The position numbers were made by a program, and so were the translations under genes. Below, piece by piece: positions 6,960 to 9,862 of a stretch of DNA of 28,151 nucleotides; the first letter of the stretch is position 1, and every line of letters starts with the position of its first letter. The stretch lies in IMG/VR virus record IMGVR_UViG_2563366928_000002; one strand, written 5' to 3'. The notes beneath the pieces were generated by a model. The model saw only the letters and a program-made list of their open reading frames with translations, did not search any database and had not been told where the DNA came from. This DNA comes from a virus. Taxonomy: Duplodnaviria; Heunggongvirae; Uroviricota; Caudoviricetes.

Positions 6960-9862
<2,903 letters not shown>

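Follow-up and report, generated by a model that had tools for sequence, protein, structure and literature searches.

A rare nonsense allele of IS30 nested within an IS3-family element of a Qin-like Escherichia coli prophage

Results and Discussion

The 28,151-nucleotide stretch of prophage DNA analyzed here (IMG/VR virus record IMGVR_UViG_2563366928_000002; hereafter the window) carries an IS30 element whose transposase frame is broken by a single in-frame TGA codon. The layout of its domains indicates that this copy is a non-autonomous pseudogene with intact ends. The explanation as a whole, which we consider highly probable, is that a real point mutation rendered the copy non-autonomous, and that the mutant allele had a single origin and was then copied.

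A single nonsense codon in an otherwise ordinary IS30

The element is complete, lies on the minus strand at 7868..9088, and is identical to intact IS30 copies at 1220 of its 1221 bp. Its termini are imperfect 26 bp inverted repeats that agree with each other at 23 of 26 positions (TGTAGATTCAAT...). The left, transposase-proximal repeat occupies 9063..9088 on the minus strand (TGTAGATTCAATTGGTCAACGCAACA, read from the sequence) and the right repeat 7868..7893 on the plus strand (TGTAGATTCAATCTGTCAATGCAACA), and the element is flanked by the two copies of a 2 bp target-site duplication, GT, at 7866..7867 and 9089..9090. A megablast search with window positions 7850-9110 returned IS30 matches in 3,826 of 5,426 complete E. 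coli genomes, and the matched copies are annotated as 'IS30-like element IS30 family transposase'; 3,367 records show at least 80% query coverage, and identity to copies encoding WP_001254932.1 is 99.9%. The length, inverted repeats, 2 bp duplication, HTH and DDE/rve domains, and near-identity expected of the IS30 family are all present in 7868-9088. Set beside the prototype E. coli IS30 (InsI, WP_001254932.1, 383 aa), the window copy has in common the 1221 bp length, the 26 bp repeats, the 2 bp duplication, and the HTH_38 and rve domains, and differs in having TGA for AGA at codon 101, which breaks the long open reading frame (ORF) of autonomous copies. It is therefore an ordinary IS30 by every structural test save that of an uninterrupted ORF.

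Minus-strand translation of 9026..7872 yields 100 residues (MRRTF...QRNRG), a stop, 14 residues (RYYKAVDANNRANR), and a further 268 residues that begin with MAKRPK and run to the natural stop, so that the transposase frame amounts to 100+1+14+268 = 383 codons with a single interruption. The premature stop at codon 101 (AGA/Arg in intact copies) is located at 8724..8726 on the minus strand, where the plus strand reads TCA, the reverse complement of TGA; the base that follows it is C, giving a UGA-C context. Base-by-base comparison with copies encoding WP_001254932.1 identifies one difference within IS30: the plus strand has A at 8726 and theirs has T, a coding-strand change of A to T that converts AGA (Arg101) to TGA. 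On this sequence comparison, one difference in 1221 positions from the consensus of thousands of copies rules out a chance pattern.

These results bear out most of the initial annotation, which was made from the letters of the window alone. It had described an IS30 nested in another IS, and the element 7868-9088 does lie inside an IS3-family host; it had described a single TGA at 8724-8726 splitting a 383-codon frame, and the translation agrees. It had proposed aligning 7868..9088 with intact IS30 and had named a reference carrying the same TGA as the finding that would speak against it; only the base at plus-strand position 8726 differs, and the intact references read AGA.

The truncated product (100 aa plus stop, 8724..9026, minus strand) retains the whole of HTH_38 (aa 58-98; Pfam, E = 2.6e-26) and an upstream HTH-like stretch. 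The rest of the transposase frame (7875..8723, minus strand), consisting of 14 codons and then a 268 aa ORF with an ATG start (7875-8681), contains the rve/DDE core (Pfam rve on the 268 aa part, E = 2e-14). The stop is thus positioned three residues past the end of HTH_38 and ahead of rve. In place of the uninterrupted 383-codon ORF of an autonomous copy, translation would end after the N-terminal HTH and the DDE domain would not be made; because the catalytic domain is lost in this way, the copy is predicted to be unable to mobilize itself. Upstream of the ATG that opens the 268 aa ORF (8681), the sequence shows nothing resembling a Shine-Dalgarno motif, so reinitiation there is unlikely to be efficient, and any product it gave would be without the DNA-binding domain. 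Nor is the stop conserved among functional members of the family, TGA being present in 5-6 of 5,426 genomes and AGA in roughly 6,900 copies, and programmed readthrough or selenocysteine recoding is therefore not supported.

The TGA allele is real and rare

The initial annotation had offered two readings, a nonsense-inactivated IS30 or an error of sequencing or assembly. The first stands and the second falls, given the recurrence of the codon in at least seven independent assemblies. Occurrences were identified with a 55-mer centered on the variant base, with 27 nt per side, such that a 28-nt megablast word seeds on the TGA allele only. Exact matches are present in five of the 5,426 genomes: AF14 and AF10 (two places each), 6EVA, wlxctx60, and plasmid pPSS-12_1. 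The 55-mer also matches one noisy plasmid copy, which likewise reads TGA. These sequences are of diverse origin, AF14 and AF10 being UK blood isolates, 6EVA coming from Singapore, wlxctx60 from a bear in Japan, and pPSS-12_1 from Ecuador. A wider protein and contig collection added verified TGA copies in GCA_000407865.1 (two scaffolds), GCA_900448355.1, GCA_900448375.1, and one metagenome contig, and TGA was confirmed base by base in loci L001, L004-L008, and L022-L029. One of the scaffolds of GCA_000407865.1, KE136710.1, is 100% identical to window positions 4724-13026 (8.3 kb), including two sites at which AF14 differs, which makes that assembly the probable origin of the window. The wild-type 55-mer (AGA) occurs at roughly 6,900 places among the same complete genomes. 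The TGA allele is real, accounts for about 0.1% of copies, and is already annotated, the copies of AF14 and AF10 being listed in RefSeq as pseudogenes with an 'internal stop'.

Suspicion of an error is natural when the difference is one base in a repeated element, repeats being prone to consensus errors, and one TGA plasmid copy (L009) is visibly noisy, with 23 gaps. However, the same allele is found in the 2013 scaffold-level assembly GCA_000407865.1, in the complete AF14, AF10, 6EVA, wlxctx60, and pPSS-12_1 sequences, and in the metagenome contig; it stands at two loci of one genome; and the AGA of roughly 6,900 other copies shows that there is no systematic error at the site. With the same TGA recovered by several technologies, laboratories, and countries, sequencing error is excluded for practical purposes, and an intact copy concealed behind an erroneous TGA is extremely improbable.

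About 100 contigs encode the exact 100 aa protein, but this number is an overcount if taken as the allele frequency, as some of the genes are partial ones at contig ends that carry the wild-type A (L030 and L031). These two contigs, from a metagenome scaffold and a draft genome that are unrelated, stop exactly at IS30 nt 363 (locus position 4301), the first base of codon 101, where both read the wild-type A. The breaks might come from assembly-graph branching at the polymorphic base.

A probable single origin and several contexts

As the initial annotation had suggested, the genome's other IS30 copy (L004, L026) was compared, and it too reads TGA. In AF14 and AF10 this copy is located next to nhaC/psiE in an IS911-like element, at the equivalent position and in the opposite orientation relative to its host, and the two AF14 copies agree at all 1221 bp. 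6EVA and wlxctx60 have the nhaC-locus TGA copy too, and neither has the prophage copy. The window copy, in the prophage, has the same orientation as its ISEc31-like host; the pPSS-12_1 copy is in an ISEc52-like host that is 7% diverged from the nhaC-locus host; and the metagenome copy is in an ISEc31-like host beside cobUST. Finding a rare allele in no fewer than four sequence contexts, and in either orientation, means that it has been copied after it arose.

Separate AGA to TGA mutations at each locus would also place the codon in several contexts, and recurrent mutation is always formally possible, although nothing specific speaks for it here. Under separate origins, an identical transversion at one and the same base would have struck the two copies of one genome while sparing the roughly 6,900 others, and the TGA copies are otherwise identical or one private SNP apart. 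No distinct linked SNP backgrounds were seen among the TGA copies compared, and we assign this account almost no probability.

The nhaC-locus TGA looks older on the sequence evidence. First, 6EVA and wlxctx60 have it and are without the prophage copy. Second, strains in which the nhaC-locus IS30 is cut by ISKpn26 are unmatched by the TGA 55-mer, and the one that was checked (13P484A, L032) reads AGA; the interrupted copies were considered as hidden TGA carriers and rejected on the same observations. In 13P484A and seven similar genomes, ISKpn26 lies near the 3' end of IS30 within the IS911-like element, forming a three-level nest of insertion sequences. A different rearrangement is seen in pPSS-12_1 (L005, 3060-3169 and 4391-4500), where the TGA IS30 is bordered on both sides by the orfB-side half of the target in inverted orientation, with ISEc31-like sequence on one side and ISEc52-like sequence on the other. 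These flanks suggest that a pair of nested IS30 copies, oppositely oriented, recombined or took part in an inversion.

Three relatives, SCU-172, MSB1_4I, and AF3, share the prophage/ISEc31 locus. Their IS30 is inverted relative to that of the window, reads AGA within an intact ORF, and has a private SNP at 8334. Over 2,580 bp, the flanks of SCU-172 and MSB1_4I, the two strains compared, match the window at 100% identity; the comparison with AF3, where an additional IS110 is inserted, covered IS30 only. Unlike the IS30 of these relatives, the window element is identical to the nhaC-locus TGA copy, and it is thus not a mutated descendant of theirs. The sequences suggest that the prophage/ISEc31 site was filled independently in two lineages, or that the element was flipped by some route. 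No strain was found in which the ISEc31 of the prophage site is unoccupied.

We propose that AGA (Arg101) to TGA arose once in one IS30 lineage, and that the allele was then copied to further sites, among which would be the frameshift region of the ISEc31-like element in the Qin-like prophage. Candidate routes for the putative copying step are transposition by transposase from an intact IS30 elsewhere in the cell, hitch-hiking or exchange within the IS3-family host composite, and IS30-to-IS30 sequence conversion; because the TGA copies have no internal marker besides the stop, the three are indistinguishable. Chromosomal IS30 copies are reported to supply transposase in trans (PMC9333248), and IR-targeting by IS30 is reported to give sequence conversion (Olasz et al. 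2003, as cited in PMC9333248). Transposase-less IS30 constructs that rely on chromosomal IS30 (PMC9333248), like non-autonomous derivatives in general, resemble the TGA copies in having intact ends and a target duplication and no transposase of their own. As with trans-mobilized derivatives, the TGA copies also occupy several sites, and this implies that copying went on once the element was inactivated. In contrast to those constructs, however, mobilization in trans is here one candidate among others, and conversion or IS3-family hitch-hiking could give the same pattern.

Homologous exchange from the nhaC locus to the prophage by way of the host-IS flanks was considered and rejected. The ISEc31-like and IS911-like hosts are about 70% alike outside a 56 bp heptamer block (91% identical), and such an exchange would keep the orientation of IS30 relative to its host, which differs between the two loci. 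One scaffold (L023) apparently links the nhaC-locus copy to the flank of the prophage, but it includes a run of N and was disregarded.

A history in which the nonsense element never transposed is possible, though we think it doubtful. An intact IS30 would have inserted at the prophage site and later acquired TGA from the older nhaC copy by gene conversion, through either homologous recombination or transposase-linked IR-targeting conversion. The complete identity of the two AF14 copies would be expected from such an event, the IR-targeting conversion cited above provides a documented means, and no helper transposase for a dead element would be needed, which would explain the absence of an intact copy. 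However, repeated conversions would be needed to place an allele of about 0.1% frequency in four or more contexts across strains and plasmids that are unrelated, and the wild-type IS30 that should have preceded it, in the same orientation at the prophage site, is found in 0 of 5,426 genomes.

Present state of the lineage

Half-element queries identify exactly two IS30 copies on each of the AF14 and AF10 chromosomes, both of them TGA. A chimeric query, consisting of the single-copy psiE/nhaC segment joined to the wild-type 55-mer, shows that the wild-type 55-mer is absent from these two chromosomes; with the same query, 6EVA and wlxctx60 each have one wild-type copy. In AF14, blastn found no IS30 on plasmids 2 and 3, and the annotation lists none for plasmid 4 or for the remainder of plasmid 3. 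The first megablast had placed IS30 at '4 places' in AF14, but these do not represent two further copies, as the half-element searches show two only; the extra places are most likely short junction or IR matches at the oppositely oriented nhaC-locus copy.

With no intact IS30 in AF14 or AF10, there is no helper today, and movement by the element's own pathway would depend on the arrival of a helper or on leakage at UGA-C. Both remaining copies in the lineage of the window are TGA, and IS30 would thus be functionally extinct there unless an intact copy arrives. The initial annotation had called the nested element frozen in place unless complemented in trans. That description fits the present state of the genome, as the closest complete genomes, AF14 and AF10, now have no intact IS30, but not the history of the allele, which is present at several loci, in several host elements, and in both orientations, and hence was copied at some time after the mutation.

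UGA followed by C is reportedly the weakest termination context in E. coli, and leakage may yield a trace of full-length R101W protein. A more active role would follow if the stop were leaky or functional, with UGA-C readthrough providing R101W transposase, the 100 aa HTH peptide down-regulating transposition, or both, such that the copy is an attenuated self-mobilizing variant. The context of the stop is consistent with this, as are the retention of the whole HTH_38 in the truncated product, the spread of the allele, and the present AF14 genome without any intact copy. In addition, binding to bp 9-35 of the IS30 ends is documented for a 17-kDa N-terminal transposase fragment (Stalder 1990, cited in PMC7780238). 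However, the 100 aa product is about 50 aa shorter than that end-binding fragment, and occurrence in 5-6 of 5,426 genomes is the rarity expected of a recent deleterious or neutral mutation and not of a selected regulator. We regard a leaky or functional stop as very unlikely.

Truncated N-terminal transposase products regulate transposition in other elements, including IS1 InsA, IS911 OrfA, and the Tn5 inhibitor protein. By analogy, a regulatory role for the 100 aa HTH peptide is conceivable, at low probability; in those systems the short product is conserved and belongs to the normal design, whereas here it is the product of a rare point mutation. It is also unlikely that the TGA allele represents a spreading non-autonomous or attenuated lineage, sustained by a UGA-C leak or by parasitized intact copies, in which the HTH peptide may damp transposition and which in AF14 and AF10 has taken the place of every intact copy.

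The IS3-family host and the prophage

The host of the window IS30 is an ISEc31-like element of the IS3 family, with its 3' part (orfB) at 6952..7865 and its 5' part (orfA and the left end) at 9091..9432, both on the minus strand. Without IS30 it measures 1258 bp and has TG...CA ends (TGTAGTGG...CCACTACA), an A AAA AAG -1 frameshift heptamer at host nt 333 (window 9094..9100, minus strand), and orfB in the -1 frame. It is annotated as IS3 family/ISEc31, and the size of ~1.25 kb, the TG...CA ends, and the A6G orfA/orfB overlap of that family are all present. IS30 is inserted 5 nt downstream of the heptamer and parts orfA from orfB. The ISEc31-like host lacks a 3 bp target duplication, its flanks reading ctt and gat (6930-6951 and 9433-9460), and its two neighbors are tail assembly gene T (gpT) and the 3' remnant of a tail-tip gene. 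This junction, together with the absence of the duplication, indicates that the intervening tail genes, from tape-measure to J, have been deleted. The surrounding Qin-like lambdoid prophage is, as judged from its gene content, tail-defective.

The window and AF14 are 99.83% identical by proper alignment, with 4 SNPs outside the tail-fiber repeat. A position-by-position comparison gives 3,374 mismatches, which are an artifact of a 189 bp repeat indel in the tail-fiber gene. This gene (window 3164-5386) is intact in the window, where it encodes 740 aa, and is annotated as truncated in AF14; compared with AF14 and AF10, it shows the 189 bp indel, and mismatches are clustered in its internal repeats. 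A phage tail protein gene at 11441-12020 is frameshifted according to the AF14 and AF10 annotation, and is represented by two Minor_tail_Z ORFs in L022. The split gene is another sign of prophage decay.

IS30 at IS3-family frameshift sites

IS30 is found repeatedly 5 nt downstream of an A6G or A7G -1 heptamer, in ISEc31-like, IS911-like, and ISEc52-like elements and in two other IS3-family elements. These insertions occur in both orientations, have an AC (or GC) duplication, and split orfA from orfB. Examples are located at window 9089-9100 and 7838-7867, at 3155-3169 and 4391-4420 of the nhaC-locus sequence (L004), in pPSS-12_1 (L005), and at ~3909-3938 in L030/L031. A 60-nt junction probe is covered over at least 80% of its length in 1,773 of 5,426 complete E. 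coli genomes. In the lambda interval 33200-33520, the sequence closest to the IS3-family target (16/30) is LHS, a known hot spot for IS30 with its insertion point at 33290/1. A literature search for an IS30 hot-spot consensus ('GOHS') found none, and no paper was found that describes a pattern of IS30 insertion downstream of the IS3-family heptamer.

Taken by itself, the window IS30 is a case of ordinary pseudogenization, already flagged by RefSeq, and matters little. Its diagnostic base is nevertheless a natural marker with which a dead IS allele can be traced across loci, host elements, plasmids, and strains, and AF14 and AF10 illustrate a lineage in which all intact IS30 copies have been lost. 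For researchers of IS biology, the landing of IS30 by the IS3-family heptamer may be of more use than the nonsense allele.
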